A stretch of 64,000 bases of DNA from Gemmiger formicilis (GTDB lineage Bacteria; Bacillota_I; Bacilli_A; RFN20; CAG-826). The notes below the pieces were generated by a model. The model did not search any database and was not told where the DNA came from. It was given only the letters and a program-made list of their open reading frames with translations. The DNA lies in contig CAVDWX010000010.1 of NCBI GenBank assembly GCA_963612735.1, positions 10,387 to 74,386 of the forward strand, given 5' to 3'. The translations under genes were made by a program, and so were the position numbers. This document shows positions 1-46,277 of the stretch, one piece after another (positions within the stretch are counted from its first letter, which is position 1; each line of letters starts with the position of its first letter).

Positions 1-324
1 AAAACGATGGGTGGACTTTGCTTGCCTGCGACACCATGTAAAGAATATGACACTCTTGATAATACTATTTCTGTTTTTAAACAAAGCGTTATTAAAGCGA
101 TGAATGAAAATTTAATGTTTTATGAATCTAGAAAGGCGAAATTATTTTGCTTAGGTAAAATCGATTTACATTTCCAAAATGGAACAGGTCGATCCACGGT
201 TTCACTTCTTAAAGGGAATAATGACCAAGCTAAAATGAGTGTTGATCAAATTATGACTGAAAATTATGAATATATTCGTAAGAATCTATCCGATATTCAA
301 GATTTGATCAATCAAGCTAAATAA
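1..324 (+). CDS. Hypothetical protein, possibly 5'-truncated; the frame is open back to position 1. It is the first gene of the plus-strand glycan operon.
   Basis: ORF 7..324; no stop between position 1 and 7 in the same frame; only 16 nt to the next gene; no recognisable motifs. Confidence 0.4.
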   Translation, partial: KTMGGLCLPATPCKEYDTLDNTISVFKQSVIKAMNENLMFYESRKAKLFCLGKIDLHFQNGTGRSTVSLLKGNNDQAKMSVDQIMTENYEYIRKNLSDIQDLINQAK

Positions 325-340
325 TTAGTAGAGATATATT

Positions 341-2848
341 ATGAAAAATAAAAGTTTAGCGTTTATCTTACTTATAGGTGCCACGATACCAACGATGGTA
401 GGCTGTTCAACCTCTAGCTCCATTTTAGAATGCTTTAGTGTTTATTCCACTGTTAAAGTATCACAAAATGCCGACCATTCAGTTTATTATGATAAATTAG
501 ATCCTAAAATTGATGTCAGCATGATGCAAAATGAATCCGAAGCTGGACAAATCATTTTTAGATTTAGTAGAGATATTAAGAATTTTACGGTTGAAGTTAG
601 CGATTTAGTGAGTAACAACAATAAAACCATTTCCAAAGACAATGTTACTGTTTATATGCAAAGATATCTTGAATTAGATAAAGATTTCGACCATATCGAA
701 GACCTCCCAACTGGGACTATGGTACCTGATTTCTTATTACCAGTCGAATACGCTATTAGCAGTAATGAAAATAAGATTAATAAAGATGATTATCAAGGAT
801 TTGTCGTTGATATTAGATCAAATAGTAATACCGAAGGCGGGACTTATACAGGAACTGTTAAGTTCACATTTGATAATGTTGTTAAAGAAATCCCTGTCAG
901 CGCTACAGTATGGGGTTTTCAATACGAAGGTACTAGAGAAATGAAATCTTCATTCCTCGTTTATCGAGGAGCGTTATTGTCTGGAGAATATAACGCTAGT
1001 GATGAAACAGTTCAAGCCTATACCGACATGTTGACTGATTTTAAAGTTAACGCTATGGTCGTCGAGACTCCGGACAAATATAACGTTACTACCATGAAGG
1101 AATATGTTGATAACCAAGTTAGAATGATAAATGCTAATCCTAATTATTCTTCTATTCCACTTCCAATTGTTAATATTCCTTATTCTTTTAGTGTTGTTGA
1201 TATTCCAAGCAATCGTTCAAGTTTGACTGATAATCAAAAAGTGGTCTGCATGTTATATGATTTCATTCGTAATTTGGTTGCTAATTCATCTAATGATATC
1301 AATTATCTTAAATATGCTTATCTATATTTAACTAATTTTGATGAAATGGATATGTATAAAGGACCTAGTGGTAGTTATGAAAGAGGTTTAAAATTCTTTG
1401 CTAAAGATGGACAACTTGAACAAATTTTAAACCTTATTGTGAACCGCATTAATAAAGATGGAGAGCTTTCTAAATTCAACGTCGATAAAAGAGAAGAAAT
1501 CGTTAATTCCATTTTAAATATCGATAGAGTTAATCCTCTTACTACTTTTGATAGCACCATTGTGGAAACATTGGATCAAGTTTCATGTCCATATATTTCT
1601 CAATTAGAGAACAGTGAATATTATGCTCGTTATGATTATAATCGCGATGAAAACGCGAATGGTGAGTTGTGGACTTATACATGCGTTGGTCCAAAAGCTC
1701 CTTATCCAACTTTCCATTTAGGCGATTATAACCTTGGTAGTAGAACTACTGGTTGGACTATGAAAAGAAGAAATGTGACCGGATATTTATATTATGCCGT
1801 CAATATTTATTCTGAACTTAATAATTCCGCGAATGGAGAATTTATCGATCCTTATACCACTCCAACTAGAAGCGCTGAGTGTCCTGGCGATGGCTTTTTA
1901 ATCTATCCTGGTGGCAAATATGGTAGCACCTCTCCTTTCCCATCTAATCGATTATTATCATTTAGAGATGGAATGGATGATTATGATTTATTAAGCGTTT
2001 ATGAAAGAGAACTTAATAAAGCGGAAACGACATACGGAGTGAGTTTTGACTTTGAAGCTTTGATGAATGAAGTTTATGACAAAGTTATCACCAGTGCTTT
2101 ATATGTTAGTGATGATGAAGCTGTTTTATTAGCAAGACAAGAAATTGCTAATCGCATTTTAGCGCTTAAATCTGATGATAATTTATTAGTCAATTCTTAT
2201 TTAAACGGTGATAAAGTTACTACTGAAATTTATTCTTTATATAATTCATTTAACATTAACGGAAATGACGTTGATTCATCCGATATTGTTAAGTCTAATA
2301 AAGGCTATAAATACGTTTATGAATCCAATGCTTGTCAAGTTTCGTCTCTTAAGATTTTAGGGATGACTTCTAATCTTACTTACCATATCTCTTATCAAGA
2401 TTATGTTAGTACTTTCAAAAATGTAAACGATATCAATGTTAGCGAAGGCTCTTCTATTGGAGTTGAAAATAATACTTTAGTATGTGAAATGAATTCACTT
2501 GATAAGGGTAGTGTTAACGCTAATAGAAGATTTAAATTGTTTGTTGATATCGCTAATAATGATTTAGCTAATGTAAAAGGCATTGATTTTACTATTAAAA
2601 ATGATACTGCTCAACCTTTAACTATCAATGTCAGTCTTGATGGAGTAACTTCTAAATACACTAAGACAGTTTATTTATATCCAAATGAGGAAAGAAGTTT
2701 CCATTATAATTTTGTTCTTGAAGACGAAAATAAAATTTCTTATGCTTCTGGAATTAAATTTGAATTAGAAAATTACGATTCGGTAAATGAAAGCATCTAT
2801 TCTTACGCTAGAAATTTCACCATTAGTAATATTTCATTTTATCGATAG
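341..2848 (+). CDS. Large lipoprotein (835 aa), putative surface glycan-binding or glycoside-hydrolase-like protein.
   Basis: N-terminal signal peptide with lipobox (LIGATIPTMVGC-S); long ORF, tightly packed with the downstream ABC/GH genes; family not recognised from sequence. Confidence 0.8.
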   Translation: MKNKSLAFILLIGATIPTMVGCSTSSSILECFSVYSTVKVSQNADHSVYYDKLDPKIDVSMMQNESEAGQIIFRFSRDIKNFTVEVSDLVSNNNKTISKDNVTVYMQRYLELDKDFDHIEDLPTGTMVPDFLLPVEYAISSNENKINKDDYQGFVVDIRSNSNTEGGTYTGTVKFTFDNVVKEIPVSATVWGFQYEGTREMKSSFLVYRGALLSGEYNASDETVQAYTDMLTDFKVNAMVVETPDKYNVTTMKEYVDNQVRMINANPNYSSIPLPIVNIPYSFSVVDIPSNRSSLTDNQKVVCMLYDFIRNLVANSSNDINYLKYAYLYLTNFDEMDMYKGPSGSYERGLKFFAKDGQLEQILNLIVNRINKDGELSKFNVDKREEIVNSILNIDRVNPLTTFDSTIVETLDQVSCPYISQLENSEYYARYDYNRDENANGELWTYTCVGPKAPYPTFHLGDYNLGSRTTGWTMKRRNVTGYLYYAVNIYSELNNSANGEFIDPYTTPTRSAECPGDGFLIYPGGKYGSTSPFPSNRLLSFRDGMDDYDLLSVYERELNKAETTYGVSFDFEALMNEVYDKVITSALYVSDDEAVLLARQEIANRILALKSDDNLLVNSYLNGDKVTTEIYSLYNSFNINGNDVDSSDIVKSNKGYKYVYESNACQVSSLKILGMTSNLTYHISYQDYVSTFKNVNDINVSEGSSIGVENNTLVCEMNSLDKGSVNANRRFKLFVDIANNDLANVKGIDFTIKNDTAQPLTINVSLDGVTSKYTKTVYLYPNEERSFHYNFVLEDENKISYASGIKFELENYDSVNESIYSYARNFTISNISFYR

Positions 2849-2862
2849 AGGGAGTTAATTAT

Positions 2863-4137
2863 ATGAAAACAAATAGAGCATTATTACTATTATTACTTCC
2901 TACTTTATTATTCACTTCATGTGGTAAAGAAAAAGAACCTTCTTATTCTAACGAAGTACTTTTGAATGGATATGAAACTGTTAGCGATATGTATCGCTCT
3001 AAATTAATTTATTCATTCAACAATTACAACATGAAATGTGCTTTCGAAATTAATAAAGATTCCACTTATATCAAAGAAGGTAGCGGATCTTTAAAGATGT
3101 ATATGGAAAGAGCCGTGAGTGGAGATTATTCCTATTTTGTGCAACGTTTTTCCCAAAGCGAAGCTAAGGAACGCGATATTTTTGATATCGATAAATTCTC
3201 TTTGTGGCTTTATAACACCTCGGATGTAGAAACAACTATTTCTCTTGCTTTAATTGGCACCGGAGATAAAGTAGTCACTAAACAAGACTTTAAATTAGTG
3301 GCTTCTAATTGGAATTATCTCGAATATAATTTATCAAAATTAATTGTTGAAACATCTTATGAAAGCTTAATTGGTTTTGGTATCTTAATTAATGAGACTA
3401 ATGGCACTTATTATTTAGATGATTGGAAAGTTTATTTTGGAGCGACATACACTGATGAAGATTTAAAAGTATTAGATATCATTAATGAAGCCAGCACTAA
3501 AGTGAGTGCCCTAAATTTAAATATGAATTTCAACGACACTAGTGAAGTGGCTAAGCTTGAAGAAGCTTGTACTTTATATTATCAAATCGATTCTTCTTAT
3601 CGAAGCGCCGTTAAAGGGGCTAATAACTTGCTCACCTTAGCGGAATCCTATACCAAATTTTTATCGACGAATAGCGATCCCGCTGTTGCGTTTAATTTTG
3701 CTAATCCTGCAGGCTTAGTTCAAGCTAGCGTCTCTTTATTATCTAGTGGAGGCGTTAACTTATCTTATTCGACTGATATTAAAAGACCTTCCACTAATGG
3801 TTCGATTAAAATCAGTGCGAACGGAAGCACTAAATGGACATATTTAGATTTAACAACATCGTTAACTTTATCTGATTATTCTAAATTTGGCTTCTGGTTT
3901 TATAACGATAGTGCTCAAGAATTTGGCTTCTGTGTCCAATGGAATGCGACCGCTCAATACATCAAACCAAAAGGATATATTAGTGATAATGATGGTTGGC
4001 AGTACTGCGAATATTCTTGTGCCGGATTATCTAATAAAGTCGAATTTGAATATTGCACTGTGGCTGAAGGCGTTGCTGGAGGCATTTTAGATACCGAAGG
4101 CGATATTTACATTAGCGATGTCACATTGATTAAATAA
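2863..4137 (+). CDS. Lipoprotein (424 aa) with two internally repeated beta-rich modules; possible carbohydrate-binding protein.
   Basis: Signal peptide plus lipobox (LLFTSC-G); RBS GAGGGAG; repeated F.LWLYNTSD / FGFWFYNDSA motifs suggest an internal duplication. Confidence 0.8.
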   Translation: MKTNRALLLLLLPTLLFTSCGKEKEPSYSNEVLLNGYETVSDMYRSKLIYSFNNYNMKCAFEINKDSTYIKEGSGSLKMYMERAVSGDYSYFVQRFSQSEAKERDIFDIDKFSLWLYNTSDVETTISLALIGTGDKVVTKQDFKLVASNWNYLEYNLSKLIVETSYESLIGFGILINETNGTYYLDDWKVYFGATYTDEDLKVLDIINEASTKVSALNLNMNFNDTSEVAKLEEACTLYYQIDSSYRSAVKGANNLLTLAESYTKFLSTNSDPAVAFNFANPAGLVQASVSLLSSGGVNLSYSTDIKRPSTNGSIKISANGSTKWTYLDLTTSLTLSDYSKFGFWFYNDSAQEFGFCVQWNATAQYIKPKGYISDNDGWQYCEYSCAGLSNKVEFEYCTVAEGVAGGILDTEGDIYISDVTLIK

Positions 4138-4151
4138 AATAAGGTATTAGA

Positions 4152-4901
4152 ATGCCACAAGTTAAACTTGAAGATATCAGTGTCTCATACTCTTCTAGAA
4201 AAAATAGCAATTATGTTTTAAATGACTTAAATGTTATTTTTGAAGATGGGAAGATTAATGTTATCTTGGGCGAAAGTGGTTGTGGTAAGACCACATTATT
4301 ACATTTAATTTGTGGCACGCTTAATGCTAGCAAAGGCAATATCTATTTTGATGATTTAGATATTACTAATTTCTCTATTCGCGATCGAAATGTGGCTTTA
4401 GTTAATCAAAGCATAACTTTATATCCCCATTTAAATGTTTTTAAAAATATCGCTTTTCCTCTTATGCATACCTCCGCGAGTGGAGAAGAGATTAAAAATA
4501 GAGTTTATGAAGTCAGTAAATTACTACATATCGAACATTTATTAACTCGTAAGCCAAAACAAATATCATTAGGGCAAGCTCAACGTGTTTGTATAGCTAA
4601 AGCGATTATTAAAAGACCATACGTCTTCTTATTTGATGAACCTTTTTCAAATCTTGATGAAGCTTTACGAATCGAATTAAGAACTGAACTAAAAAAATGC
4701 TTACTTGATTTAAAAGCAACATCAATATTTGTCACTCATAATATTAAAGAAGCGATGATGATGGGTGATTATATCTATGTCATGGATGAAGGACATATTA
4801 TAGAAAAAATAGAAGCTAAAAATTTCTTAGAGGCGAAAAGTAAAGCCGCGAAAGAATTGATTAAAAATGAGTTTAAAGATGAAAATGTACTCGACGACTG
4901 A
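4152..4901 (+). CDS. ABC transporter ATP-binding protein (249 aa) with a degenerate signature motif.
   Basis: Walker A GESGCGKTT, Walker B FLFDEPFSNLD, H-loop THN; signature motif is ISLGQAQRV instead of LSGGQ. Confidence 0.85.
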   Translation: MPQVKLEDISVSYSSRKNSNYVLNDLNVIFEDGKINVILGESGCGKTTLLHLICGTLNASKGNIYFDDLDITNFSIRDRNVALVNQSITLYPHLNVFKNIAFPLMHTSASGEEIKNRVYEVSKLLHIEHLLTRKPKQISLGQAQRVCIAKAIIKRPYVFLFDEPFSNLDEALRIELRTELKKCLLDLKATSIFVTHNIKEAMMMGDYIYVMDEGHIIEKIEAKNFLEAKSKAAKELIKNEFKDENVLDD

Positions 4902-5358
4902 TTTAGATATATTTAAGAAAAAATATCGTTTATTTTCGATTCTATTTTTCGTTTCTATATTTTTATTGATTGCTTTATTTGTTCTAAGTCTTTGCTTTAC
5001 TAATTATAAGAATTATTTATATTTTGAAATCATTGGTGGCGTTATTGCGTCGATTTTCGTTTTTATATGCATTTTATTTTATTTTAGATTGATCGATTAC
5101 AAACGTTTAATTAATCACTACCTCAGTGTCTTTAATGAGAAAAAAACTTATATCGATGGAACATTTCTTTCTCTTGGCGAATATATCATCACATTAGATG
5201 ATAATATCAGAGTTAAAGAAGCCTATTTTGAAGTTGATAATAATAAAGTTACTTATTATATTTTATCTATTTTTGATACGGAAAATTTAAAAGCTAATAC
5301 CAAATATAATGTCCTCCTCGCTGATCGTTTTATAAGGAGCTTTAATTATGAAATATAA
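4867..5358 (+). CDS. Small membrane protein (2 TM); the start is uncertain, alternative ATGs at 4879 and 4885.
   Basis: Hydrophobic segments FSILFFVSIFLLIALFVL and GGVIASIFVFICILFYF; overlaps the upstream ABC ATPase gene. Confidence 0.55.
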   Translation: MSLKMKMYSTTDLDIFKKKYRLFSILFFVSIFLLIALFVLSLCFTNYKNYLYFEIIGGVIASIFVFICILFYFRLIDYKRLINHYLSVFNEKKTYIDGTFLSLGEYIITLDDNIRVKEAYFEVDNNKVTYYILSIFDTENLKANTKYNVLLADRFIRSFNYEI

Positions 5359-5956
5359 TTTTCCTTATAAAGCTCATTTTCAAAGAAATATTTGGCTTTA
5401 CATTTTATTAATGTTAATAGTTACTACTTCTTATGAGTTTGCTATTAAAAGTAAATCCGCACTCAAAAAATATCAAAAATTTAATATTTTTGTGGCCACT
5501 AAAAAAGTGGATTTAGATTCACTTAAAGCAAAAATTAACAATTATATCGATAATGATACGATTAAAAATGTCGTTATCAATCAATGTAATCCCACTCTTA
5601 CTTCTTATTACACGATGTACACCACTTTTGGTTTAGAAGACGCTGATATCCTCATCCTTAATAGCGAATATATCTTTATTAATGATTTGAAAAGTCATTT
5701 CACTTCTTTTACAAGTGAATCGTCGTATTATGGTGAGACAAATTATATTTATAATGATGTCCATTATGGGATAGAGATATATCAAAATAAAAAAGGCCGC
5801 CTAACTAACTATATTACCTATGATGAAGATGCAACTTATTATTTATTCATCAATAAAAAATCAAAACATTTATTAGGTTTTACTAGCGATAGTGAAGGCA
5901 AAACGAATTCGCTTATAAAAGTGTTAGGAGGTATTTTTAATGAAGAATCAAAATAA
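5348..5956 (+). CDS. Membrane-anchored hypothetical protein (202 aa).
   Basis: RBS AAGGAG 8 nt upstream; N-terminal TM helix IWLYILLMLIVTT; no known domain recognised. Confidence 0.6.
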   Translation: MKYNFPYKAHFQRNIWLYILLMLIVTTSYEFAIKSKSALKKYQKFNIFVATKKVDLDSLKAKINNYIDNDTIKNVVINQCNPTLTSYYTMYTTFGLEDADILILNSEYIFINDLKSHFTSFTSESSYYGETNYIYNDVHYGIEIYQNKKGRLTNYITYDEDATYYLFINKKSKHLLGFTSDSEGKTNSLIKVLGGIFNEESK

Positions 5957-6863
5957 AGGTAAAAAAGTTAAAAAAGTCACCCCTGATTTTTTATTAGAAC
6001 AACTTCCTTCCACTCGAAGAAAACAGTTTTTTGATATTTTAAAAAATGAATACCGAACGCTTTTATTAATCGGACTCATCTTAGTGCTGTTTTTTATCCC
6101 GTTTATAGTTTCTAATATTTTTGAATATGGTTTTATGAGCGGTACTTCTGAAACAATTAAAAAAGCTATGGAAGCGGAAGGAAGAAATAGTGAAGAAATT
6201 GCTAGAGCTATTAAATTACAAATGAGGTCTATTCATCTTTTATTTACTGGCATTAATATAATTTGCTTTATGATTTTTTCTTTAGGATTAGCGGGAGTAT
6301 CGCGCGTTATAAAATGCCTTTGTTTTGGAGAAGGCGTTGTTTTTAAAAGCGACTTCTTCATCGGCATAAAAGAGTACTATAAATCATTTTTGGCGGTTGG
6401 CTTTTTTTCAGGTCTATTTTATTTCTTAATGACTTATACCGGAGCCATGCTAGACGCTTTAAGTAAAGATAATTCTAGTTTACTTATTGTTAAAGGTTTA
6501 ACGATTGGATTTTATTTTGCACTTCTAGTTCCTTTATTCCTTTTTTCGTTAGCGCAATCAACCTTATATAATGTGCCATTTTTTAAAAATATTTCTAACT
6601 CTATAAAATTTATTATAAATAAATATTATATTTGTCTCATTTTTTCTATAATAATTTATATGATATATCTATTGACTTATATAGTTTATCCACTCATTTC
6701 AATCTTATCTTTTGTAGCGGTTATTATTCTTATTGTCCCTTTTATAGAACTAGCGTTTCATTTATTCGCTTTATCGCTATTTGATAAATACATTAACAAA
6801 AATTATTACCCTCAAATTTATAAAAAAGGGTTATACATAAAAGATAATACAAAGGAGAATTAA
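5940..6863 (+). CDS. Polytopic membrane protein, possibly DUF624/YesL-like accessory component of a sugar ABC system.
   Basis: RBS AGGAGG; at least 6 hydrophobic helices; basic N-terminus followed by TM helices as in YesL-family proteins. The family assignment is tentative. Confidence 0.6.
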   Translation: MKNQNKGKKVKKVTPDFLLEQLPSTRRKQFFDILKNEYRTLLLIGLILVLFFIPFIVSNIFEYGFMSGTSETIKKAMEAEGRNSEEIARAIKLQMRSIHLLFTGINIICFMIFSLGLAGVSRVIKCLCFGEGVVFKSDFFIGIKEYYKSFLAVGFFSGLFYFLMTYTGAMLDALSKDNSSLLIVKGLTIGFYFALLVPLFLFSLAQSTLYNVPFFKNISNSIKFIINKYYICLIFSIIIYMIYLLTYIVYPLISILSFVAVIILIVPFIELAFHLFALSLFDKYINKNYYPQIYKKGLYIKDNTKEN

Positions 6864-6866
6864 ATT

Positions 6867-8501: not shown

Positions 8502-8508
8502 TTATATT

Positions 8509-11295
8509 ATGGAAAACAAATATAAATGCATTCCCTTCTGGAGTTGGAATGATGAATTAGAAATTGATGAATTAGTCCGTCAAATAGAATGGATGCATGA
8601 TAATGGAGTGGGTGGTTTCTTCATGCACGCTAGAGGGGGATTAACTACTCCTTATTTAGGGGAAAAATGGTTCCAATGTGTTAATGCCTGTTTAAAAAAA
8701 GCTAAAGAATTAGATATGGAAGCTTATGCCTATGATGAAAATGGGTGGCCAAGTGGCTTTGTTGGTGGCAAATTATTAGAGGACCCTTCTAATTCTGATT
8801 ATGCTGTTAGTTTTAAATACGGCGAATATGACTCTCATGCTGTAGCTAGTTTTTTAGTGGATGAAAATAGTGTTAAGCGTGTTAGCGGTGGAAGCGATGT
8901 TTTAAATGTTTATTTAAATAGAAGTAAATCCACTGTTGATATCTTAAATCCTAAAGTCGTTGATCAATTTATTGCCTTAACTCATGAACAATATAAGAAA
9001 AATGATGAAGTGGGTAATTTAAGAGGATTTTTTACCGATGAGCCTCAATATTTTAGATGGGGTACCCCTTTTACTTATATGCTCGTTGATTATTTTAAAA
9101 AACATTATAACGAGGATGTATTCGATAGAATTGCATTGCTCTTTATAAATAAAGAAGGTTATAGAGATTATCGCTATAAATATTTTAAGGCTTTACAAGA
9201 TTTAATGCTTAATAACTATTCTAAAAAAATATATGAATGGTGTGATTCAAATAATTATAAATTCACCGGTCATTACGTCGAAGAAGTTTCTCTTGGTTAT
9301 CAAATCATGTGTTGTGGTGGCATCATGCCTTTTTATGAATATGAACATATTCCAGGAGTGGATCATTTAGGAAGATGGGTTAAAAGAAACGCCGTTGCAA
9401 AACAACTCGGTTCGGTTATGTCTCAACTCGATAAACGCCAAGGGTTATGCGAAATGTTTGCTTGTGTTGGTTGGGACGCTACTCCGCTTGAATTGAAAAA
9501 GATTGCTGACTTTTATATGGTGAATGGCGTTAACCTTATGTGTCAACATCTTTTACCTTATAGTGAACACGGACAACGTAAAAGAGATTATCCAGAACAT
9601 TATTCCATCATTAACCCCTGGGTGGAGAAAGCTTTTAAAACATTTAATGATCATTTTTCTAATATCGGAGAAAAAATAGCTAAGAGTAGAGATATATGTA
9701 ATGTTGGTTTATTCTCTCCGATTAGAACGGCTTATTTTGAATATCAAAGAGATCAGGAAGCCACTGGTTTTAATGTAAGTGAATTAGATAATGATTTTAT
9801 TATTGCAAATGAAATGTTCACTAATAATGGGATTAATTATCATTTATTAGATGAAGTAATTATGGCTAAACATGGTTATGTCGAAAAAGATGAACTCATC
9901 GTTGGCCAAGTTAGATATAAATACATTGTGATTCCAAAAGGGACTTTAACAATCGATGTTACGACGATGAAATTATTTAAAGAATTCGCTTCTAATGGTG
10001 GCAAATTCTTACTATTAGGCGATGTACCTTCCTATCTAGAAGGTCATGAATTTAATCATGATTATATTCATAACAACGTCACATTTGAACAAATTAAAAA
10101 AGACCAACCTTATACATCGACTTATTCTACAAATATTATGATGACGTATCGTCTTAATGATGACGGACAATATTTCTTCTTTTTGACCAATTGTGGCGAT
10201 AAAGAAGATGATGTTACTATTAATATTGATAATTTTGTTTCGTTTGAATGCGAGGGTCAAGTAATTTCTAATAAGATTCATCTTAATGTTGGTGAATCAA
10301 AAATCTTAATTTCTAGCAAAAAGAAAGCAAAACAAGCGCCAAATTTAGAAATTTTACATCTAGGTCATGAATTTGATGTTGTTAATGAACCTATGAATTA
10401 TATTACTCTTGACTATCTTTCTTATTCATTTGATAACCAAAATTATAGTGAAAAATTACATCATATGGGTGTCTTTGATCGGATTTTAAAGAGCCGTTAT
10501 CAAGGTAAACTTTATCTCAAATATGAATTCGATATTAAACATTTAACTAATAAATATGAAGCTTTAATTGAAGACTGTCATACTCTTTCCGTCCTTGTAA
10601 ATGGACATGAAGTCAATCGATTAGGTCATGTTCTTGAAAAGGATTTATGGAATTATGATATTGGTAAATATCTTTTAATTGGACATAACGAAATTGTTGT
10701 CCTAATTGATTTTATGGAAAAAGAAAATGTCTATTATGCTTTATTTGGTAAAGATGTTTTAGAATCCATTAAAAACTGCTTAGCTTACGATACCACTATT
10801 GAACCGATTTATATACGAGGTGATTTCGGAGTGTATGGTGATTTTAAAGATGGAGAATTTAATCAAGCTATTATTGGCAATAATTTTTATTTAGATAAAC
10901 AAACTTATCACATATCTTCGCTTATTAAAGATGGGTATCCATTTTTTAGAGGTGAAATAGCCTTAAGCACAAATATTAATGTCGATAGCATTAATAAATT
11001 ATTAGTGATTGATAAACGTTTTCATTTAATCGATTTATATATCAATGATGTGTTTGTTAAAAGAATGCTTTTTGATTATAAAGTAGATTTATCTAATTAT
11101 TTAAAAGTTGGAAACAATAAGATTGAGATTAGGCTTTCTATCAGCAATCGAAATTTACTTGGACCATTCCACGATCCTTTAGAAGAACCAATGTCAGTTG
11201 GTCCTTACAGTTTTGAACGATTTGGGACTTGGGATGAAAAGGGTAAATCCTGCCTTTGTTTAGATAGATATAGTTTTATAAAAACAATAATTTAA
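8509..11295 (+). CDS. Large cytoplasmic glycoside hydrolase (about 930 aa); the family is uncertain but the N-terminus is similar to that seen in GH106-like rhamnosidases.
   Basis: N-terminus CIPFWSWNDELEIDEL..GVGGFFMHARGGLTTPYLGEKWF; no signal peptide. The start was placed at ATG 8509 just after the msmK stop rather than at the upstream alternative start 8470. Confidence 0.75.
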   Translation: MENKYKCIPFWSWNDELEIDELVRQIEWMHDNGVGGFFMHARGGLTTPYLGEKWFQCVNACLKKAKELDMEAYAYDENGWPSGFVGGKLLEDPSNSDYAVSFKYGEYDSHAVASFLVDENSVKRVSGGSDVLNVYLNRSKSTVDILNPKVVDQFIALTHEQYKKNDEVGNLRGFFTDEPQYFRWGTPFTYMLVDYFKKHYNEDVFDRIALLFINKEGYRDYRYKYFKALQDLMLNNYSKKIYEWCDSNNYKFTGHYVEEVSLGYQIMCCGGIMPFYEYEHIPGVDHLGRWVKRNAVAKQLGSVMSQLDKRQGLCEMFACVGWDATPLELKKIADFYMVNGVNLMCQHLLPYSEHGQRKRDYPEHYSIINPWVEKAFKTFNDHFSNIGEKIAKSRDICNVGLFSPIRTAYFEYQRDQEATGFNVSELDNDFIIANEMFTNNGINYHLLDEVIMAKHGYVEKDELIVGQVRYKYIVIPKGTLTIDVTTMKLFKEFASNGGKFLLLGDVPSYLEGHEFNHDYIHNNVTFEQIKKDQPYTSTYSTNIMMTYRLNDDGQYFFFLTNCGDKEDDVTINIDNFVSFECEGQVISNKIHLNVGESKILISSKKKAKQAPNLEILHLGHEFDVVNEPMNYITLDYLSYSFDNQNYSEKLHHMGVFDRILKSRYQGKLYLKYEFDIKHLTNKYEALIEDCHTLSVLVNGHEVNRLGHVLEKDLWNYDIGKYLLIGHNEIVVLIDFMEKENVYYALFGKDVLESIKNCLAYDTTIEPIYIRGDFGVYGDFKDGEFNQAIIGNNFYLDKQTYHISSLIKDGYPFFRGEIALSTNINVDSINKLLVIDKRFHLIDLYINDVFVKRMLFDYKVDLSNYLKVGNNKIEIRLSISNRNLLGPFHDPLEEPMSVGPYSFERFGTWDEKGKSCLCLDRYSFIKTII

Positions 11296-11319
11296 TAATA
11301 GTTATATGAGGATTTAAAT

Positions 11320-13281
11320 ATGGGAAAAAGAGAACGCTATTTTGGACTACATTTTGATTATCACGCTAATGAGAATACATTGAATATTGGTAAAAATTTT
11401 GATGCTAGCATACTTGAAACAATCATTAAAGAAGTTAAACCTGATTTCATTCAATGCGATACCAAGGGTCATCCTGGTTTGACTTCATATTGCACTAAGG
11501 TTGGTTTTCCTGCGCCTGGGATAGTGAAAGATTTATTAAGACAGTGGAGAGACGTTACTAAAAAATATAATATTCCTCTTTATGCCCATTATTCTGGAAT
11601 TTGGGATAAAAAAGCCACTAGTGTACATCCTGATTGGGCTGAAGCGTTTGAAGATGGTTCTTTAACTGATAGAATTAGTGTTTTTTCTAATTACAGTGAT
11701 GAATTAATGTTACCTGAATTAAAAGAACTAATTTTAGATTATCAAATGGATGGAGCATGGGTTGATGGTGATTGTTGGGCACTTGTAGTGGATTATTCTC
11801 ATGCCGCAAAAAAAGCTTATAAAGAAAAATATCATAAAGACGCTCCTAAAGTTAATAAAGAAGGATATCGAGAATATCTTAATTTTCTTAAACAAGGATT
11901 TTTCGATTATGTTAAAAAATATGTCGATTACGCTCATTCGCTAAATAAAGACTTCATGATTACTAGCAATTGGCTTAATACCGGATGGGTACCTGATGAT
12001 ATCAATATAACTGATTATATTTCCGGAGATTTATCACCCACTAATAGTGTTGACAGTGCTCGATTTGGTGGAAGGCTAATGGCTATGTCTAATCGAAACT
12101 GGGATATGATGAGTTGGGGTATTTCTTTTCCTGTTCACCATAGTAAAAGTACTGTCCAATTAAAGCAAGAAGCGGCTTGTACATTAGCCATTGGCGGTGG
12201 CTTTCAAATCTACAACATGCAAGATCCTACTAGTGTGGTAGTGGAGCCTAAAGCTATTGCCACTTGGGCGGAAGTTTCTCAGTTTGTTCATGATAGAAAA
12301 GAATATTGCTTCGGAGGAGATTTCATTCCAGATTTAGGTTTATTATATTCCGTTTCTTCTTATTATAAGAGCATTGATACTGTCTTTAATAGAGAATGTC
12401 CTTTTAACGAAGAATTTAATGGCACATTACTCGCTTTATTAGATCAATCAGCTTCCGTTAATGTCGTTAGTGAAGAAAAATTAAGCAAAGAAATATTAAC
12501 TAAATATCCTCGTTTTGCGGTGGGAAATGTTTTAAGTTTGCCTAACAATATTATTGAAATGCTTTTAGAATACGCCTCAAATGGTGGAATTTTAATTCTT
12601 CTAGGTGCTGACACGATGAATGTATTTGAACCATATCTCCACTTAGATATCGAATTACATAAAGATAATCACCCCATCTATTTTTTAAAGGGCGAAAGAT
12701 CCTTTTTAGAAAATAGAGATTCCTATGCTTTTATTAAAAATAAGGAAATTGACACCATTGTTCCTTTATATGAAGGAATTGTGGAAGGAGATTTAGGATG
12801 CACTAATCCGCCTCCAACTATTCTACATGGAGACAAAGAATATCCTGGTTTAGCTAAAATTAAATATGGAAATGGTTCTATTTTACTTGCTCCAATGAAT
12901 TTAGGGCGACTTTATTTAAATGAAAGAACGCTTGAAGAAGAAGATTTCTTTTCTAAATTAGTTTTATCTACTGAAAGACAACTAATTATGCATAATCACC
13001 CGACAGAATTAGATGTCGTATATCGTAAGAAAGATGAAAGAACTTATCTACATCTCATCAATTTATTAGGTTCACATCGAGTTAATACCATATCTACTTT
13101 TAAATCTATTCCTCCAGTGAGCAATGTCGATATAAAGATTAAATCAGCTATTAAACCAAGCGCTATTTATTCTCGTCCTGATCATAAATTAATAGCTTTT
13201 TGTTATGATGAAAAGCAAAAAGAAATACTAATCCATTTACCTTTCATTGAATTATATGAAATTTTAGAATTAGTATTTTAA
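11320..13281 (+). CDS. Putative glycoside hydrolase (653 aa, TIM-barrel-like); family unresolved, possibly fucosidase-related.
   Basis: RBS GAGGA; cytoplasmic; N-terminus GLHFDYHAN..DFIQCDTKGHPG; located in the glycan locus adjacent to fucI. Confidence 0.7.
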   Translation: MGKRERYFGLHFDYHANENTLNIGKNFDASILETIIKEVKPDFIQCDTKGHPGLTSYCTKVGFPAPGIVKDLLRQWRDVTKKYNIPLYAHYSGIWDKKATSVHPDWAEAFEDGSLTDRISVFSNYSDELMLPELKELILDYQMDGAWVDGDCWALVVDYSHAAKKAYKEKYHKDAPKVNKEGYREYLNFLKQGFFDYVKKYVDYAHSLNKDFMITSNWLNTGWVPDDINITDYISGDLSPTNSVDSARFGGRLMAMSNRNWDMMSWGISFPVHHSKSTVQLKQEAACTLAIGGGFQIYNMQDPTSVVVEPKAIATWAEVSQFVHDRKEYCFGGDFIPDLGLLYSVSSYYKSIDTVFNRECPFNEEFNGTLLALLDQSASVNVVSEEKLSKEILTKYPRFAVGNVLSLPNNIIEMLLEYASNGGILILLGADTMNVFEPYLHLDIELHKDNHPIYFLKGERSFLENRDSYAFIKNKEIDTIVPLYEGIVEGDLGCTNPPPTILHGDKEYPGLAKIKYGNGSILLAPMNLGRLYLNERTLEEEDFFSKLVLSTERQLIMHNHPTELDVVYRKKDERTYLHLINLLGSHRVNTISTFKSIPPVSNVDIKIKSAIKPSAIYSRPDHKLIAFCYDEKQKEILIHLPFIELYEILELVF

Positions 13282-13287
13282 TTTTAT

Positions 13288-15090: not shown

Positions 15091-15202
15091 TTTCTTTTTA
15101 CCTCTATTTGTTTAACCAAATATTAGCACATGCAAGTTATAAAAATAAAAAGATAGTAATTAGATAGTAATTTTTTATAAGTTTATATTTAGATTTTTAA
15201 AG

Positions 15203-16669
15203 TTAATCTAACTTGTCTTTATTTTCAAGTAAGAATGATATTGGTCCAACACTCCATCCATGGCATAAAGAATGTCTAAATCCTTTATAACAAAACTTAC
15301 CAAAATCGCCATGTATATCGAGCTGATTTTCTTTAACAAATTCATCGATTTGGCATGAATTAGTGATCCATTCTAAATCAAAATCTTCCCAAAATGTGGT
15401 TGCCCCTTTGTCTAACATGGCTCCGTAATATTCTTTCATCATCGTTATCGCCATATTGAAATCATAATTACTAACCGCTTTTAAAATATAATAAGACATG
15501 AAAGTAGACATACCTTTGGCTCCATCTTTAATGAGTAGTTCATAAGATTCTTTATCTTTATTAACTAGTTGGTAGAAGGCTAATAACTGTTTTTTATGCG
15601 GTAATGACATCTTTTTCTTTGAAAGCGATACTAACATTCTTTGGATAACAGAAGTATCTAAATTGAGTTCTTCAAACATTTTATTTATTAATGGAAGAAT
15701 GTATTTCAGTAGATTGATATGAGCATTAATTCTATCCACTAGTGGTTCATCAAGCGTTGGCCAATCAATAAAATAGAAATCTGAAGGGCATTCTTTTACT
15801 TTTTCAAAGTTTAAATTTCCATCCTCATCAATTGCTTCATTTAACTCATTTATAATTCCTTTTATATAATTAAGATGTCTTTTTGCAAAAGCTTTATTTT
15901 TCTTATAAGAATAAACATCATAAATGATTAATAAATACCAAATTGAATAACTTGGAATATCATTAAGCCAAGAAGGTAATGGATAAGATAATTCAGCGGT
16001 ATTAATGCTTTGTTCAATTTGTTTGATGTTACCATATAAATGTAATATTGCATGAACTTCTGGTTCCATATCTCCAATCCATACCAGACGATCCCTTTTT
16101 ATTCCATCCCATATGCGATTTCCTATGTTTAAATCGATAGTTCTTTTACAAACATCGTATATTTTTTTAATGAGATTATCGCTAGTTTTTATATTATCTT
16201 TAACTTTTAAATCAAGATACCACTCCTTAGCATATATTGATTTAATTTTTAATGGTAATTCACTTTTATTATCAATTCGAACAAATCTAAATCCCGTGTC
16301 TCCAAATGTTTGATCGCTCATTGAGGGCAAATATGTAATAAAATCTCTAAGCGCATGGTCGTTACTTGCACCCTTTTCATTGAGCTCTGCGCACGTTTCG
16401 TTTAATGATTCTCCAAATCTAAAACGAACTAGATATTGATCTTGAGCGGACTTACTATAGCTAGTTAATATTCTAATCCCGCCTATCAATTCTTCGTTAA
16501 AATCGAGGATAATAAAACCATCTTTTTCAATCGTTGTAACATCCAACTCTTTAATTGAAATTTGTAGATCTTTTTCTTTTAAAAGACTTTCACTATTAAA
16601 AACATTATCAGAATGACTAATGATTTTAGTTGGCACTTTGTAGCGAATTTTCCTATTTTCTTTAATCAT
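15203..16669 (-). CDS. Six-hairpin glycosidase, alpha-L-rhamnosidase (GH78 catalytic domain)-like, minimal 488-aa form.
   Basis: KRDRLVWIGDMEPE resembles the GH78 ERLGWTGD motif; C-terminal CHGWSVGP; cytoplasmic. Confidence 0.65.
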   Translation of the reverse strand: MIKENRKIRYKVPTKIISHSDNVFNSESLLKEKDLQISIKELDVTTIEKDGFIILDFNEELIGGIRILTSYSKSAQDQYLVRFRFGESLNETCAELNEKGASNDHALRDFITYLPSMSDQTFGDTGFRFVRIDNKSELPLKIKSIYAKEWYLDLKVKDNIKTSDNLIKKIYDVCKRTIDLNIGNRIWDGIKRDRLVWIGDMEPEVHAILHLYGNIKQIEQSINTAELSYPLPSWLNDIPSYSIWYLLIIYDVYSYKKNKAFAKRHLNYIKGIINELNEAIDEDGNLNFEKVKECPSDFYFIDWPTLDEPLVDRINAHINLLKYILPLINKMFEELNLDTSVIQRMLVSLSKKKMSLPHKKQLLAFYQLVNKDKESYELLIKDGAKGMSTFMSYYILKAVSNYDFNMAITMMKEYYGAMLDKGATTFWEDFDLEWITNSCQIDEFVKENQLDIHGDFGKFCYKGFRHSLCHGWSVGPISFLLENKDKLD

Positions 16670-16710
16670 AAATGGTTCCTATTTATAAGAATTAAAATTA
16701 TGTAATGCTC

Positions 16711-18318
16711 TTAGAAATTATTATAAGTCATCAACCAATCAAAATTATTGTTTAAATAACAATCTTCTGTGGGATCTGGAATATAATTGGCTTTGAGCGT
16801 TTTTTCTTTATATTCTCCAATTTCAACATCATTCTTAATATAGTCTAATAATCTTTCTTTAAGGTATTTAATTCTTGAAAGAAGATAACTATGGTGAAGT
16901 AAAGATATTTCATAACCGTAAGCTTGATATTCATTCAAGAAATATTGTTCAAATGATTTATTGAATACTTCAATAGCTTTAATAAGTTTATCGATGTTGT
17001 TTTTAATATAATTTTCTAAAGCAATTTTGTCTTTTTTATAATAAGCGTTTCTTATATCTTCACTAAGATGAATTTTAAGTGATAATACTTTGGCAAAGTT
17101 AGCTATCATTTCAAAATAATAACTAAAATTAATATCGTTATATTTTTTAGCCAAACGATGATATTTAGCCCCTAATAGGTGGTATTTATGATTGACCTCT
17201 CTACTAGCGTATAAATCATAATTCCCGAGCATCATATCGCTAAAAAAGGCGATATAAGAGGTGTTGTTATAATATTTAGTTCGATCGTGTTTATAAGGAT
17301 TATTTAATAAATCTAGACTCAATAAATCATCATATTCAACACCAACGATTTGATAAAATTTTTCTTTGTTTATTTTATTGTTGTTCGTAATTTTATTTTG
17401 ATTACATTCGCTCGCGATAAATAATGACGGCAATACACTATATATGGAACAAGGTATAGCAAAATCTCCCCATAGAGTTACCATATATTTATCGATATTA
17501 TTGTGACTACATACTTCTAATTGTTTAATTAATCTAGGTATGGAATAAGTATTGCTAGCAACATAACTAATGTGTTTCCAAGCACAACCCGCAAAACCAA
17601 TTTCTGAAGCATGATTTTGCATATCTTTTATTTTTTTATTTAAGGTGGTCGAATCGACACTATCGTAATCCCAAAGCCAAACTAAAGTATGTTCTGGAAT
17701 TTCTTTTTTAATGTCTTCAATTGATATGGATGTACATTTATCATCCGTTAACATATCACCCCATATTTCTATTTTGAAATTATATTTATGAGCAATTTTA
17801 ACGACTTCTTTTAAATATTCTAAAAGCAAAACTTTTTTATCTTTTAATCCATATTTATTAAGATATTCTCCCATGCCTAAGCCGAACGTTTCATCCATAC
17901 CTATATGAATAGTTCTTCCTTTAAAAGAGGATGATATGCTTTTAAACATAGCGTCGACAAATTTATATGATAATGGATTACCAACTTCTAGAATAGATCT
18001 TGTGTCCATAAATTCACGAAATGATTGATGTCTCCATATGAATTGTAAATGGCCTAATACTTGAATTGCAGGAATGACTTTGACTCCTTTTTTATTAGCG
18101 TATTCTTCAATATCTAGTAGCTCTTCTTTTGAATAACTACCGCGATGGTAATTAAAATATGGATATTCTTCAATTTTATAAGCATCAGTCAATCCAAAAT
18201 AAAATTCTTGATAACCAAAAGCACTGATGTAATCGATAAATGTTTTGATTTGAGAAACTTTAGGAGCGTTACCTGAAGCGCATTCAAGATAGCAAGATAA
18301 AGCCATAACTTTATTCAT
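16711..18318 (-). CDS. GH20-family beta-N-acetylhexosaminidase-like protein.
   Basis: KVIPAIQVLGHLQ and TIHIGMDE correspond to the GH20 VIPEID.PGH and HIGGDE catalytic motifs (D-E pair retained); cytoplasmic. Confidence 0.7.
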   Translation of the reverse strand: MNKVMALSCYLECASGNAPKVSQIKTFIDYISAFGYQEFYFGLTDAYKIEEYPYFNYHRGSYSKEELLDIEEYANKKGVKVIPAIQVLGHLQFIWRHQSFREFMDTRSILEVGNPLSYKFVDAMFKSISSSFKGRTIHIGMDETFGLGMGEYLNKYGLKDKKVLLLEYLKEVVKIAHKYNFKIEIWGDMLTDDKCTSISIEDIKKEIPEHTLVWLWDYDSVDSTTLNKKIKDMQNHASEIGFAGCAWKHISYVASNTYSIPRLIKQLEVCSHNNIDKYMVTLWGDFAIPCSIYSVLPSLFIASECNQNKITNNNKINKEKFYQIVGVEYDDLLSLDLLNNPYKHDRTKYYNNTSYIAFFSDMMLGNYDLYASREVNHKYHLLGAKYHRLAKKYNDINFSYYFEMIANFAKVLSLKIHLSEDIRNAYYKKDKIALENYIKNNIDKLIKAIEVFNKSFEQYFLNEYQAYGYEISLLHHSYLLSRIKYLKERLLDYIKNDVEIGEYKEKTLKANYIPDPTEDCYLNNNFDWLMTYNNF

Positions 18319-18322
18319 AAAA

Positions 18323-19345
18323 TTAATGTCCTTCCATTACGTATTCTAATAGTTGAGAAAATTTAGCGGTGGCTAAACCGATATGTTTATCAGCACATCC
18401 GTAATAGATGTAAAGAATATCATCTTTAACAACAGTTCCAGTTGGAAATACACATCCATCATATATGCCTTCTAATTCAAAAGGAGCATCTGGTTCCATT
18501 ATCCATTTATTGGTTTTAGCAACAATCTTTGTTGGATCATTTAAATCTAAAATACATGCACCGACTCGATAGATTCCTTTTTCATCAACGCCGTGAAATA
18601 AAAAGAACCAGCCATATTTAGTTTTTATGGGTGGAGTACCCGCACCTATACGTTGAACTTGCCAATCGTTTTCACCAGTAAAGAGTAATTTCGGTTTCTC
18701 AAAATTTAATAAATCAGTTCCGCTAGTAATCCAAATGCTTGGCATTTTAACATTAGGAGCGTCATTAAATTTAGGGCGAGTAATCATATAATATTTTCCA
18801 TTTATTTTTTCTGGAAATAATAAAACATCTCGATCATCGATATCGCTTTCTGTTAATCGACCTAATCTTTGATAATTAATAAAATCCTTTGTGGCCGCTA
18901 AATAGGTGATAGTGATGTTACTTTTAGCAAATTCTGGTAAATCTAATGTATGAACATCATCTTTTGTTATATAAATAGGTGGAAAAGGCCATTCTGGAAG
19001 CCAATAGGGTCCTGGAGCGTAGCATCTTGCTGCATAAGTCATAAAATAAGTGTCGCCTATTTTAACTAGCCGAGGGTCTTCAACGCATCCTCCATCAGGC
19101 GTTCCTTTAATTGGAGCAAAAACAGGATTATGTTCATATCGTTTAAAATTGATACCATCCTTACTAGTGGCTAAACATAGTCTAATAACATGCGCATCAT
19201 CATTACCAGCAGCGCGATATATCATGATAAATTCTTTTCTTTCTTCATCATATATAACAGCTGGATTTAAAACACATTTTGCTTCAAATTCATTATCCAC
19301 TAAAGGAGATAAAATCGGATTATTTTCATATTTATTAATTAACAT
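18323..19345 (-). CDS. GH130 family glycoside phosphorylase (beta-1,4-mannosyl-GlcNAc / mannoside phosphorylase-like).
   Basis: Typical GH130 N-terminus NNPILSPLVDNEFEAKCVLNPAVIYDEERKEFIMIYRAAG and five-bladed propeller signature; 340 aa. Confidence 0.82.
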   Translation of the reverse strand: MLINKYENNPILSPLVDNEFEAKCVLNPAVIYDEERKEFIMIYRAAGNDDAHVIRLCLATSKDGINFKRYEHNPVFAPIKGTPDGGCVEDPRLVKIGDTYFMTYAARCYAPGPYWLPEWPFPPIYITKDDVHTLDLPEFAKSNITITYLAATKDFINYQRLGRLTESDIDDRDVLLFPEKINGKYYMITRPKFNDAPNVKMPSIWITSGTDLLNFEKPKLLFTGENDWQVQRIGAGTPPIKTKYGWFFLFHGVDEKGIYRVGACILDLNDPTKIVAKTNKWIMEPDAPFELEGIYDGCVFPTGTVVKDDILYIYYGCADKHIGLATAKFSQLLEYVMEGH

Positions 19346-19387: not shown

Positions 19388-19419
19388 ATTATAGCATTCA
19401 TATTATTCATATGAATAAA
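19388..19419 (-). promoter_or_regulatory. Putative sigma-A promoter for the minus-strand GH130-GH20-GH78-like-fucI operon, overlapped by a 10-bp perfect palindrome TTCATATGAA (a candidate operator).
   Basis: On the minus strand TGCTATAAT (extended -10) lies about 45 nt upstream of the GH130 ATG; the TTCATATGAA palindrome plus an ATTCATAT direct repeat overlap the -35 region. Confidence 0.45.
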
Positions 19420-41948: not shown

Positions 41949-42029
41949 GTAATCCTCTTTTTAGTGTATATACACATTTTTTCCTAATATATTTTAGGAA
42001 TAGAATTTGAATCAATAGTGGTAAAAATA

Positions 42030-42065
42030 AACAAAAAGGCTGTCAATGTTTTACAGCCTATTTTG
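42030..42065 (-). terminator. Rho-independent terminator for the minus-strand DUF308 gene (hairpin flanked by A- and T-runs).
   Basis: AGGCTGTcaatgttttACAGCCT with acaaaaa on the 5' side and ATTTTG on the 3' side. Confidence 0.7.
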
Positions 42066-42087
42066 ATTAATTTAATAGGTCTAATAC

Positions 42088-44727: not shown

Positions 44728-44773
44728 AACTAAATCGACCGACTTTTTTAGTGCCTATATTTTACTTTTTTCC

Positions 44774-44810
44774 TTGGTGCATCTTTGGTGCATTTTTTGG
44801 TGCAAATTAT
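44774..44810 (+). repeat. 37-bp element holding three copies of TTGGTGCA (copy A), 42 nt upstream of the Schlafen-like gene.
   Basis: TTGGTGCAtctTTGGTGCAtttttTGGTGCAaattat; matches 46278..46314 at 36 of 37 positions. Confidence 0.85.
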
Positions 44811-46276: not shown

Positions 46277-46277
46277 T

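Follow-up and report, generated by a model that had tools for sequence, protein, structure and literature searches.

A probable two-layered carbohydrate-harvesting locus pairing a GH130 phosphorylase with a GH20 hexosaminidase in an uncultured low-GC gut bacterium

Which glycan is broken down by the carbohydrate genes in positions 10,387 to 74,386 of contig CAVDWX010000010.1 (assembly GCA_963612735.1, forward strand), and do these genes work as one system? The whole stretch of 64,000 nucleotides, referred to here as the window, encodes among others a glycoside hydrolase (GH) family 130 phosphorylase, a GH20 hexosaminidase, two lipoproteins, part of an ATP-binding cassette (ABC) importer and an L-fucose isomerase (FucI). 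Our comparison shows that this is a Gram-positive glycan-utilisation locus linked to an ABC importer, a known kind of locus that here holds several uncharacterised enzyme clades. With a probability of about 0.7, we take it to be a genuine carbohydrate-harvesting cluster of an uncultured low-GC Bacilli-type gut bacterium, built in two layers. The first, the core, would comprise a CUT1-type ABC importer, a GH123-type lipoprotein and a lipoprotein with duplicated modules, a short dedicated ATPase, three membrane proteins and a tightly coupled GH130-GH20 pair. The second, lineage-specific layer would add a MalK-type ATPase, a GH106-like protein, a GH151-like fucosidase, a GH78-like protein and FucI. 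A glycan-utilisation locus with GH130, GH20, GH78-like and FucI genes had been proposed in an initial annotation, and this proposal holds; all of the open reading frames (ORFs) listed there were recovered in place. The rest of the window, from 19.5 to 64 kb, is occupied by housekeeping genes (for a YfhO-like membrane protein, rsmI, PSP1, holB, tmk, recR, dnaX, prfA, secA, prfB, uvrB and others), which confines the carbohydrate genes to bases 1-19345. G+C content is ~31% across the whole window and the standard code is used; under table 11 every gene is intact, genes for both RF1 and RF2 are present, and Rfam and tRNA scans of the window gave no matches.

Among species-representative genomes, a scan found ten close loci in related metagenome-assembled genomes (MAGs), with GH130 identities of 73-86%. 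In seven of these (L001-L007, of which L003 and L005 are cut by a contig end) the genes follow one another on one strand in the order permease, permease, solute-binding protein, GH123-like protein, lipoprotein, short ATPase, three membrane proteins (tm163, tm202 and tm307), GH130 and GH20, and the MalK, GH106-like, GH151-like, FucI and GH78-like genes are absent in between these core genes. L008 has the order tm307-MalK544-GH130-GH20. GH130 and GH20 are neighbours in every one of the ten loci but L009, where GH130 but no GH20 match was found, and wherever GH20 was recovered it begins no more than ~8 nt from the GH130 stop. The clustering of this gene set, recurring as it does in at least ten related MAG loci, is not due to chance. 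The importer, GH123-like and GH130-GH20 genes are a conserved core, and the MalK, GH106-like, GH151-like, FucI and GH78-like genes are a mobile, lineage-specific accessory set.

Though mobile, the accessory set keeps re-associating with GH130. The closest relative, L010, carries GH151-like(+), FucI(-), GH78-like(-), GH130(+) and GH20(+). L009 carries a GH106-like gene and, at 5947-18454, a block of NagA, esterase, GH130, FucI, GH38 alpha-mannosidase, FGGY kinase, RhaA (L-rhamnose isomerase) and class II aldolase genes, so that the gene order from NagA through GH130 and FucI to the aldolase also ties GH130 to fucose and rhamnose genes. In L041 and L043 a GH106-like gene stands beside a GH130 paralogue. 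As an observation in its own right, the L009 block amounts to a combined catabolic block for fucose, rhamnose, mannose and N-acetylglucosamine (GlcNAc) in a related Bacilli MAG.

Does the presence of both gene sets in the window reflect a functional unit, or only their adjacency? The plus-strand and minus-strand genes converge on stop codons that read directly as TAA at 13279-13281 and TTA at 13288-13290, separated by 'ttttat', and no terminator-like hairpin was found at or near the junction at 13282-13287. The initial annotation was right about this 6-nt convergent gap and about the convergent layout; its plus-strand operon, which was said to begin at base 1, instead runs off the left window edge. 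Because close relatives carry GH130-GH20 co-directional with the transporter genes, the layout that was called unusual is best described as a lineage-specific rearrangement. One could go further and view the window as a mosaic of unrelated modules, in which a module for import of N-acetylhexosamine (HexNAc) and beta-mannosides came to abut a fucose/rhamnose-type module after such a rearrangement. Indeed, seven related loci lack the accessory genes at this position, even L010 has them in a different order and orientation, and the 6-nt junction, without a terminator, looks like a rearrangement joint. Yet the accessory genes recur by GH130 in independent arrangements, namely GH106-like and FucI in L009, GH151-like, FucI and GH78-like in L010, and GH106-like in L041/L043, and this recurrent association speaks for a functional link rather than an accident. 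Moreover, the plus-strand MalK, GH106-like and GH151-like genes of the window are packed directly behind the transporter genes, at gaps of 3-24 nt. We consider a mosaic of unrelated modules rather unlikely, and prefer a two-layered cluster whose parts are functionally linked.

Whether the cluster acts on N-glycans depends in part on the type of its GH130. In the initial annotation, a mannosyl-GlcNAc-type GH130 together with GH20 was read as the signature of N-glycan core catabolism, and this reading is not supported. Compared with all solved structures, the window GH130 matched Teth514_1788, a beta-1,2-oligomannan phosphorylase of GH130_6 (9fj8, 1.9e-55), a beta-1,2-mannobiose phosphorylase (7fip, 1.9e-50), Lin0857 (5b0p, 5.7e-43), Uhgb_MS of GH130_4 (9eqq, 5.8e-37), TM1225 (1vkd, 4.7e-35) and a beta-1,4-mannooligosaccharide phosphorylase (5ayd, 5.1e-29) ahead of UhgbMP, the GH130_2 enzyme that acts on Man-GlcNAc in N-glycans (4udg, 3.7e-24); enzyme identities and subfamilies of these entries follow PMC12814180. 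In GH130_1/2 a Tyr stands beside the catalytic Asp, and in the beta-1,2-acting group a Glu (Cuskin et al., PMC4599007). The window GH130 and all of its relatives down to ~30% identity carry E89-D90 ('VEDPR'), and with Glu89 preceding catalytic Asp90 and UhgbMP this distant, the enzyme does not qualify as a GH130_2 Man-beta-1,4-GlcNAc phosphorylase. Its best NCBIfam model is that of beta-1,2-mannobiose phosphorylase (NF052550), at 214.6 bits against an equivalog cut-off of 450, and NF050092 scored 199.3 bits against 550. A beta-1,2-mannobiose or beta-1,2-oligomannan phosphorylase thus appears to be the closest known kind, with membership unconfirmed at scores below the equivalog cut-offs.

In the alignment with 9fj8, the Arg of the window's 'ITR' corresponds to the Arg of 'HR', the Arg of 'DDRD' to the Lys of 'NKD', and the His of 'FHGV' to the His of 'YHA'. 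The 'HR' Arg of Teth514_1788 determines phosphorylase over hydrolase activity (PMC12814180), and since this phosphate-binding Arg aligns, the window enzyme is likely to be a phosphorylase rather than a hydrolase. It differs from the beta-1,2 enzymes 9fj8 and 7fip in an insertion of ~40 residues (~106-148), and the lysine associated with beta-1,2 specificity (Lys199 of BT3780) could not be placed in it from the alignments. An orthologue of 52% identity occurs in Fictibacillus fluitans (L011, 3709-18164), with LacI, UxuA, an ABC importer, a GH5-like/F5_F8_C protein, a PL8 lyase and an AXE1 esterase as neighbours; this gene set resembles a locus for an acidic, xanthan-like polysaccharide.

For the partner of GH130, the GH20 call is supported by PF00728 (Glyco_hydro_20; 1.1e-15, 58.3 bits against a cut-off of 22.3) and by the C-terminal domain PF18088 (Glyco_H_20C_C; 1.8e-26, 93.7 bits against 27). 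Residues 9-499 match residues 111-608 of GH20C chains in the PDB (5a69 of S. pneumoniae, 2.1e-64; 2epk, GcnA of S. gordonii, 4.5e-64), and 'IGMDE' aligns with 'IGMDE' of 5a6b, so that the catalytic Asp-Glu pair is kept. The window enzyme lacks the ~100-residue N-terminal domain (~residues 1-110) of the streptococcal GH20C enzymes.

N-glycan core catabolism can be restated in these terms: fragments would be imported and defucosylated, GH20 would take GlcNAc, and GH130 would phosphorolyse Man-beta-1,4-GlcNAc. A GH130, a GH20C-type hexosaminidase and a fucosidase-like enzyme are together compatible with N-glycan trimming, the PDB annotation of S. pneumoniae GH20C describes a host-glycan enzyme, the GH130 orthologue of L009 neighbours a GH38 alpha-mannosidase and NagA, and a substrate-assisted, endo-acting enzyme of GH123 type could in principle cut the chitobiose core. 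But in E-value the GH130 matches beta-1,2-mannoside phosphorylases ~30 orders of magnitude better than UhgbMP and has Glu-Asp where GH130_1/2 have Tyr-Asp, the rhamnosidase-like enzymes are without a role on N-glycans, and the Fictibacillus orthologue sits in a lyase/esterase locus. The 64-kb window holds no GH18 or GH85 and no alpha-mannosidase of GH38, GH92 or GH125, GH38 being found only in L009. Given the type of GH130, the lack in the window of an alpha-mannosidase and of an endo-beta-N-acetylglucosaminidase (ENGase), and the rhamnosidase-like enzymes, we regard N-glycan core catabolism as unlikely. What the locus does suggest is a substrate with beta-HexNAc and beta-mannose, which in this lineage would be handled alongside fucosylated material.

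Where would such a substrate first be cut? The initial annotation had taken both lipoproteins to be probable surface binders, and it was half wrong, in that the 835-residue lipoprotein is of GH123 type, carries a DE pair and is most likely an enzyme on the cell surface; the true binder is the solute-binding protein cut short at the left edge. The 835-residue protein has an N-terminal hydrophobic stretch followed by Cys22, which is at least 90% conserved in a 26-member alignment, and belongs to a small clade of 46 detectable homologues. Pfam assigns it GH123_cat (DUF4091, PF13320; 2.8e-14, 53.6 bits against a cut-off of 23.1) and the GH123 N-terminal domain (PF22680; 1.8e-06, 28.3 bits against 27). 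Its family profile matched three PDB entries that are named by their depositors as an oligosaccharide-releasing beta-N-acetylgalactosaminidase (8k2f, 1.2e-39), an oligosaccharide/monosaccharide-releasing beta-N-acetylgalactosaminidase (8k2j, 1.4e-26) and an oligosaccharide/monosaccharide-releasing beta-N-acetylhexosaminidase (8k2h, 5.6e-25), and only then classical GH123 (5fqe, beta-N-acetylgalactosaminidase by the same source, 3e-3). The catalytic DE motif occurs in 94% of DUF4091 proteins; oligosaccharides are released by the cleft-shaped enzymes of Groups 1-3, and monosaccharides by the pocket-shaped ones of Group 4 and GH123 (Sumida et al., PMC11087588). In the window family D334-E335 is invariant across the 26 aligned members, down to 23% identity, and by position and invariance would be the catalytic DE pair of GH123-type enzymes. 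Because this pair is kept, the lipoprotein is most likely a beta-HexNAc-cleaving enzyme at the surface, and it is possibly endo-acting.

The DUF4091/GH123-related beta-N-acetylgalactosaminidases NgaCa (Group 1), NgaAt (Group 2) and NgaDssm (Group 3) described by Sumida et al. (2024) share with it the N-terminal sandwich, TIM barrel, DUF4091 and DE pair; the window protein differs in its ~230 extra C-terminal residues, its lipoprotein anchor and a central barrel that does not align by sequence. Alignment to solved GH123-like enzymes is limited to the N-terminal sandwich and the C-terminal part of the barrel, and one characterised Group 1 member, NgaMg, was inactive on every tested substrate (PMC11087588), which leaves room for a catalytically inactive glycan binder, with depolymerisation occurring elsewhere or being carried out by other members of the community. 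We think this quite improbable, as it does not account for the invariance of D334-E335 and of other barrel residues throughout the 26-member alignment, and as binding would already be supplied by the 424-residue lipoprotein and the genuine solute-binding protein. The 424-residue lipoprotein, whose gene always comes after the GH123-like gene in L001-L007, contains an internal repeat (hhalign probability 85%, E 6.3e-06). None of its Pfam matches exceeds the threshold (Lyase_N, 20.6 bits against 26), the PDB offers no sequence relative, and an hhalign probability of 5% does not establish a kinship with the C-terminus of the GH123-like protein.

A signal sequence with Cys is restricted to these two lipoproteins (341-2848, 2863-4137). 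The claim that the catalytic enzymes lack signal peptides holds for the six cytoplasmic enzymes, in which no 19-residue hydrophobic segment occurs. With the soluble enzymes in the cytoplasm, oligosaccharides must be imported, and the import of whole oligosaccharides that had been proposed stands.

The two large GH-like proteins that had been noted are both present, one GH151-like and the other distantly GH106-like. The GH151-like protein of 653 residues matches Alpha_L_fucos (4.3e-08) and GHL6 (3e-05) in Pfam, and its family profile, built with 35 homologues, matches the GH151 alpha-L-fucosidase ALfuk2 (6tvk) over the whole length (2.5e-27). Its AF2 model (pLDDT 94.1) was placed by Foldseek on 6tvk with E 1.1e-38, a TM-score of 0.82 and 14% identity, well ahead of GH42, GH35-like and GH164 enzymes. 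The family-invariant D149 aligns with residue D183 of the 6tvk chain, which would be the reported ALfuk2 nucleophile D154 if the 29-residue offset between the chain (689 residues) and the native protein (660 residues) is applied. On sequence and model, the protein is probably a GH151-like alpha-L-fucosidase, and this assignment fits the neighbouring FucI gene. We keep to the label GH151-like because of the 14% identity and because the acid/base was not located. ALfuk2 shares with it the three-domain architecture over the full length and the nucleophile Asp, and a genomic link to FucI is in keeping with this likeness. At only 14% identity, the window protein probably belongs to a separate clade or family.

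The 928-residue protein is more difficult to place. Its ORF was listed from TTG at 8470 (8470/8509-11295), and the likely start is ATG at 8509, a 100%-identical database entry starting at Met14 of this ORF. The family of the protein is unnamed and very large (4,996 matches among the candidates scored), and Pfam GH106 is marginal (3.6e-07, 29.5 bits against a cut-off of 29), covering 80 of 743 model positions at the N-terminus. The sole match of the family profile in the PDB was 6q2f (RHA-P; E 0.006). For the AF2 model (pLDDT 86.9) the best Foldseek matches were the GH106 alpha-L-rhamnosidases BT_0986 (2.9e-25, TM-score 0.46, 12% identity) and RHA-P (E ~1e-25), followed by GH35-like, GH164 and GH42 enzymes. 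Two Glu residues, E178 ('TDEPQ') and E315 ('CEMF'), are invariant in the family, and model strands 171-175 and 313-315 end at them, an arrangement that in the model would correspond to the beta-4/beta-7 placement of acid/base and nucleophile typical of retaining clan GH-A enzymes. This GH-A-like placement makes 'rhamnosidase' an unsafe label, and although BT_0986 and RHA-P are the best structural matches, the activity may be a different one. Members of the family occur near GH130 genes in four contexts, which are the window, L009 (1674-4496), L041 and L043 (12063-14864).

On the minus strand, the GH78-like six-hairpin call is supported by PF17389 (Bac_rhamnosid6H; 2.8e-08, 33.9 bits against 24.5) and by matches to 3cih (6.5e-18), 2okx (3.4e-10) and 4xhc (1.3e-08). 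The classical GH78 motif is 'RDER', and the window protein has 'KRDR' at this site. FucI exceeds both of its equivalog cut-offs (NF008220, 1022.5 bits against 775; TIGR01089, 941.5 against 850) and contains all three Pfam FucI domains.

The importer belongs to the CUT1 type, with a fragment of the solute-binding protein and the ATPases in the window and the permeases expected, by synteny, upstream of it. The product of bases 1-324 is ~65-70% identical to the C-terminus of a 557-residue SBP_bac_1 protein of L001-L007, whose gene is preceded by two BPD_transp_1 permeases. In the short ATPase the Walker A, Q-loop, Walker B and H-loop are canonical, and the signature motif is not, reading ISLGQ in all eight loci of the window clade and LSAGQ in L046/L067. 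This degenerate signature could mean that the protein forms a heterodimer with one degenerate ATP site, possibly with the MalK-type ATPase (MalK544) as its partner. MalK544 has a canonical LSGGQ signature and matches UgpC model positions 103-355 with residues 281-543. Between model positions 102 and 103 it carries a Lys/Glu/Asn-rich insertion of ~176 residues (~105-280) in the helical subdomain, which is kept in the L008 orthologue; UgpC/MalK homologues of Mycoplasma are similarly over-long.

The three membrane proteins of 163, 202 and 307 residues have no match in Pfam or NCBIfam. The tm307 family comprises 769 representative clusters at E<=1e-3, and its gene stands directly after the short ATPase in the distantly related L046/L067 and after the 163- and 202-residue genes in the window clade. 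A resemblance of tm307 to YesL/DUF624 is without a Pfam match even at E<=5 and is not claimed. We also considered whether the short ATPase and the three membrane proteins might be a separate transporter without permeases, and rejected this: canonical permeases and a solute-binding protein lie directly upstream in the orthologous loci, and they adjoin the same ATPase-tm307 pair in L046/L067, where the order is GH130-ATPase-tm-SBP-permease-permease (tm307 family at 7788-8603 in L046 and 11615-12424 in L067). With permeases and binding protein directly upstream in relatives, the transporter is conventional.

Taken in order, these components suggest a flow of surface cleavage, ABC import and cytoplasmic trimming. 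The GH123-type lipoprotein would cut a beta-linked HexNAc bond in an extracellular glycoconjugate and free an oligosaccharide. The binding protein, perhaps aided by the 424-residue lipoprotein, would pass this oligosaccharide to the ABC permeases, which would be powered by the short ATPase, the MalK-type ATPase or both. In the cytoplasm, the GH151-like enzyme would remove L-fucose, which FucI would convert to L-fuculose, the GH78-like and GH106-like proteins would remove further residues, rhamnose-like or unknown, and GH20 would remove terminal beta-HexNAc. GH130, with phosphate, would then cleave the remaining beta-mannoside to yield mannose-1-phosphate.

Several points weigh against this scheme. 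Every substrate assignment is made by homology, and three of the homologies are remote (GH106-like, 12% identity and TM-score 0.46; GH151-like, 14% identity; GH78-like, more than 250 residues short of its closest structure). For the mid-barrel segment with the DE pair of the GH123-type lipoprotein, HMMER gave no alignment with a solved structure. In the GH151-like protein, no counterpart was located for the acid/base Glu235 of ALfuk2 or for His503 of its neighbouring monomer. The window lacks genes for fuculokinase and fuculose-phosphate aldolase, and each layer may have a substrate of its own, the two being mere neighbours.

Features of the locus, with positions in the window
Feature	Position	Strand	Basis
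ABC solute-binding protein (CUT1-type), C-terminal ~107 residues, cut by window edge	1..324	+	In frame from base 1, no upstream stop
835-aa surface lipoprotein, GH123-type catalytic domain, putative oligosaccharide-releasing beta-N-acetylhexosaminidase	341..2848	+	Pfam, family profile vs PDB
424-aa lipoprotein, two duplicated modules, possibly glycan binding	2863..4137	+	Signal sequence and Cys20; hhalign
Short ABC ATPase, 249 aa, without C-terminal regulatory domain	4152..4901	+	ABC_tran 1e-30; closest NCBIfam models UgpC, PotA, MalK
Small membrane protein, 163 aa, 2 predicted transmembrane (TM) segments	4867..5358	+	Hydropathy; conserved in L001-L007
Membrane-anchored protein, 202 aa, 1 predicted TM segment	5348..5956	+	Hydropathy; conserved in L001-L007
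Polytopic membrane protein tm307, 307 aa, at least 5 TM segments, unannotated family	5940..6863	+	Hydropathy, homologue search
MalK/UgpC-type ABC ATPase (MalK544), 544 aa	6867..8501	+	NCBIfam UgpC 451.8 bits in two stretches; OB_MalK 1.4e-11
928-aa cytoplasmic TIM-barrel glycosidase, distantly GH106-like	8509..11295	+	Pfam, AF2, Foldseek
653-aa cytoplasmic GH151-like protein, putative alpha-L-fucosidase	11320..13281	+	Pfam, profile vs PDB, AF2, Foldseek
6-nt spacer between convergent stop codons	13282..13287	.	Direct sequence read
L-fucose isomerase FucI, 600 aa	13288..15090	-	NCBIfam equivalogs and Pfam
Short GH78-like six-hairpin glycosidase, 488 aa	15203..16669	-	Pfam, PDB
GH20C-type exo-beta-N-acetylhexosaminidase, 535 aa	16711..18318	-	Pfam, PDB
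GH130 beta-mannoside phosphorylase, 340 aa, nearest beta-1,2-mannoside phosphorylases	18323..19345	-	PF04041 1.9e-50, 172.1 bits vs cut-off 26
Promoter-like site, TTCATA-16 nt-TATAAT with TG extension, 5' of minus-strand operon (GH130)	19388..19415	-	Consensus scan, 10/12 matches

The promoter-like site in front of GH130 is no more than a match to the consensus, and sites of this kind show no enrichment over shuffled sequences. Beyond it, and adjoining GH130, lies a divergent gene for a YfhO-family membrane protein of 1067 residues (window 19565-22768). A YfhO-like gene is also found near the GH130 paralogue and GH106-like gene of L041/L043 (L043 4169-7063), and may be a syntenic remnant. In L002, the gene at 14264-15124, a few kb downstream from the glycan locus, encodes a 286-residue protein with an ADP-ribosyltransferase exoenzyme-toxin domain (PF03496, 5.7e-13). 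Amid the housekeeping genes of the window, the block 40638-51080 encodes an AAA_14/DUF4143 protein, a Schlafen AlbA_2/HATPase_c_4 protein, a 1033-residue AAA_11/AAA_12 helicase with a DUF2726 tail and two family-less proteins, and could be a defence or mobile island.

How does this cluster compare with known systems? A literature search for this gene combination found nothing specific. The beta-1,2-mannoside systems of Thermoanaerobacter (Teth514_1788/1789) and Listeria (Lin0857) likewise place an intracellular GH130 with the Glu-Asp signature by a CUT1 ABC importer; the window GH130, by contrast, stands together with GH20, a surface enzyme of GH123 type and fucose genes. The N-glycan pathway of Bacteroides and UhgbMP (GH130_2 with GH18, GH92 and GH20) has in common with it GH130, GH20, a fucosidase-like enzyme, and import followed by intracellular phosphorolysis. 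It differs in that the window GH130 is not GH130_2, the window has no ENGase or alpha-mannosidase, an ABC importer takes the place of SusC/D, and rhamnosidase-like enzymes are present.

A bolder idea is that the GH123-like lipoprotein clade is an unrecognised Gram-positive type of surface endo-beta-N-acetylhexosaminidase that feeds a GH130 clade with new acceptor specificity, and that the short ATPase and tm307 form a new importer accessory module. We hold this to be a long shot. If true, the GH123-like clade would free whole oligosaccharides for ABC import, a job that falls to GH18/GH85 in known systems, and the new acceptor specificity could be, for example, for a beta-mannosyl-HexNAc linkage handled by a GH130_6-like enzyme.

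Our findings do not overturn current understanding. They correct the shortcut by which GH130 and GH20 together stand for the N-glycan core, as the GH130 subfamily and active-site signature need to be checked first. The locus also draws attention to clades without a characterised member: the GH123-like lipoproteins, the GH151-like proteins, the very large GH106-like family that is found repeatedly beside GH130, and a GH130 clade between the known beta-1,2 enzymes and unknowns. For an uncultured, small-genome Bacilli lineage of animal guts, it provides a concrete, testable glycan-foraging gene set.

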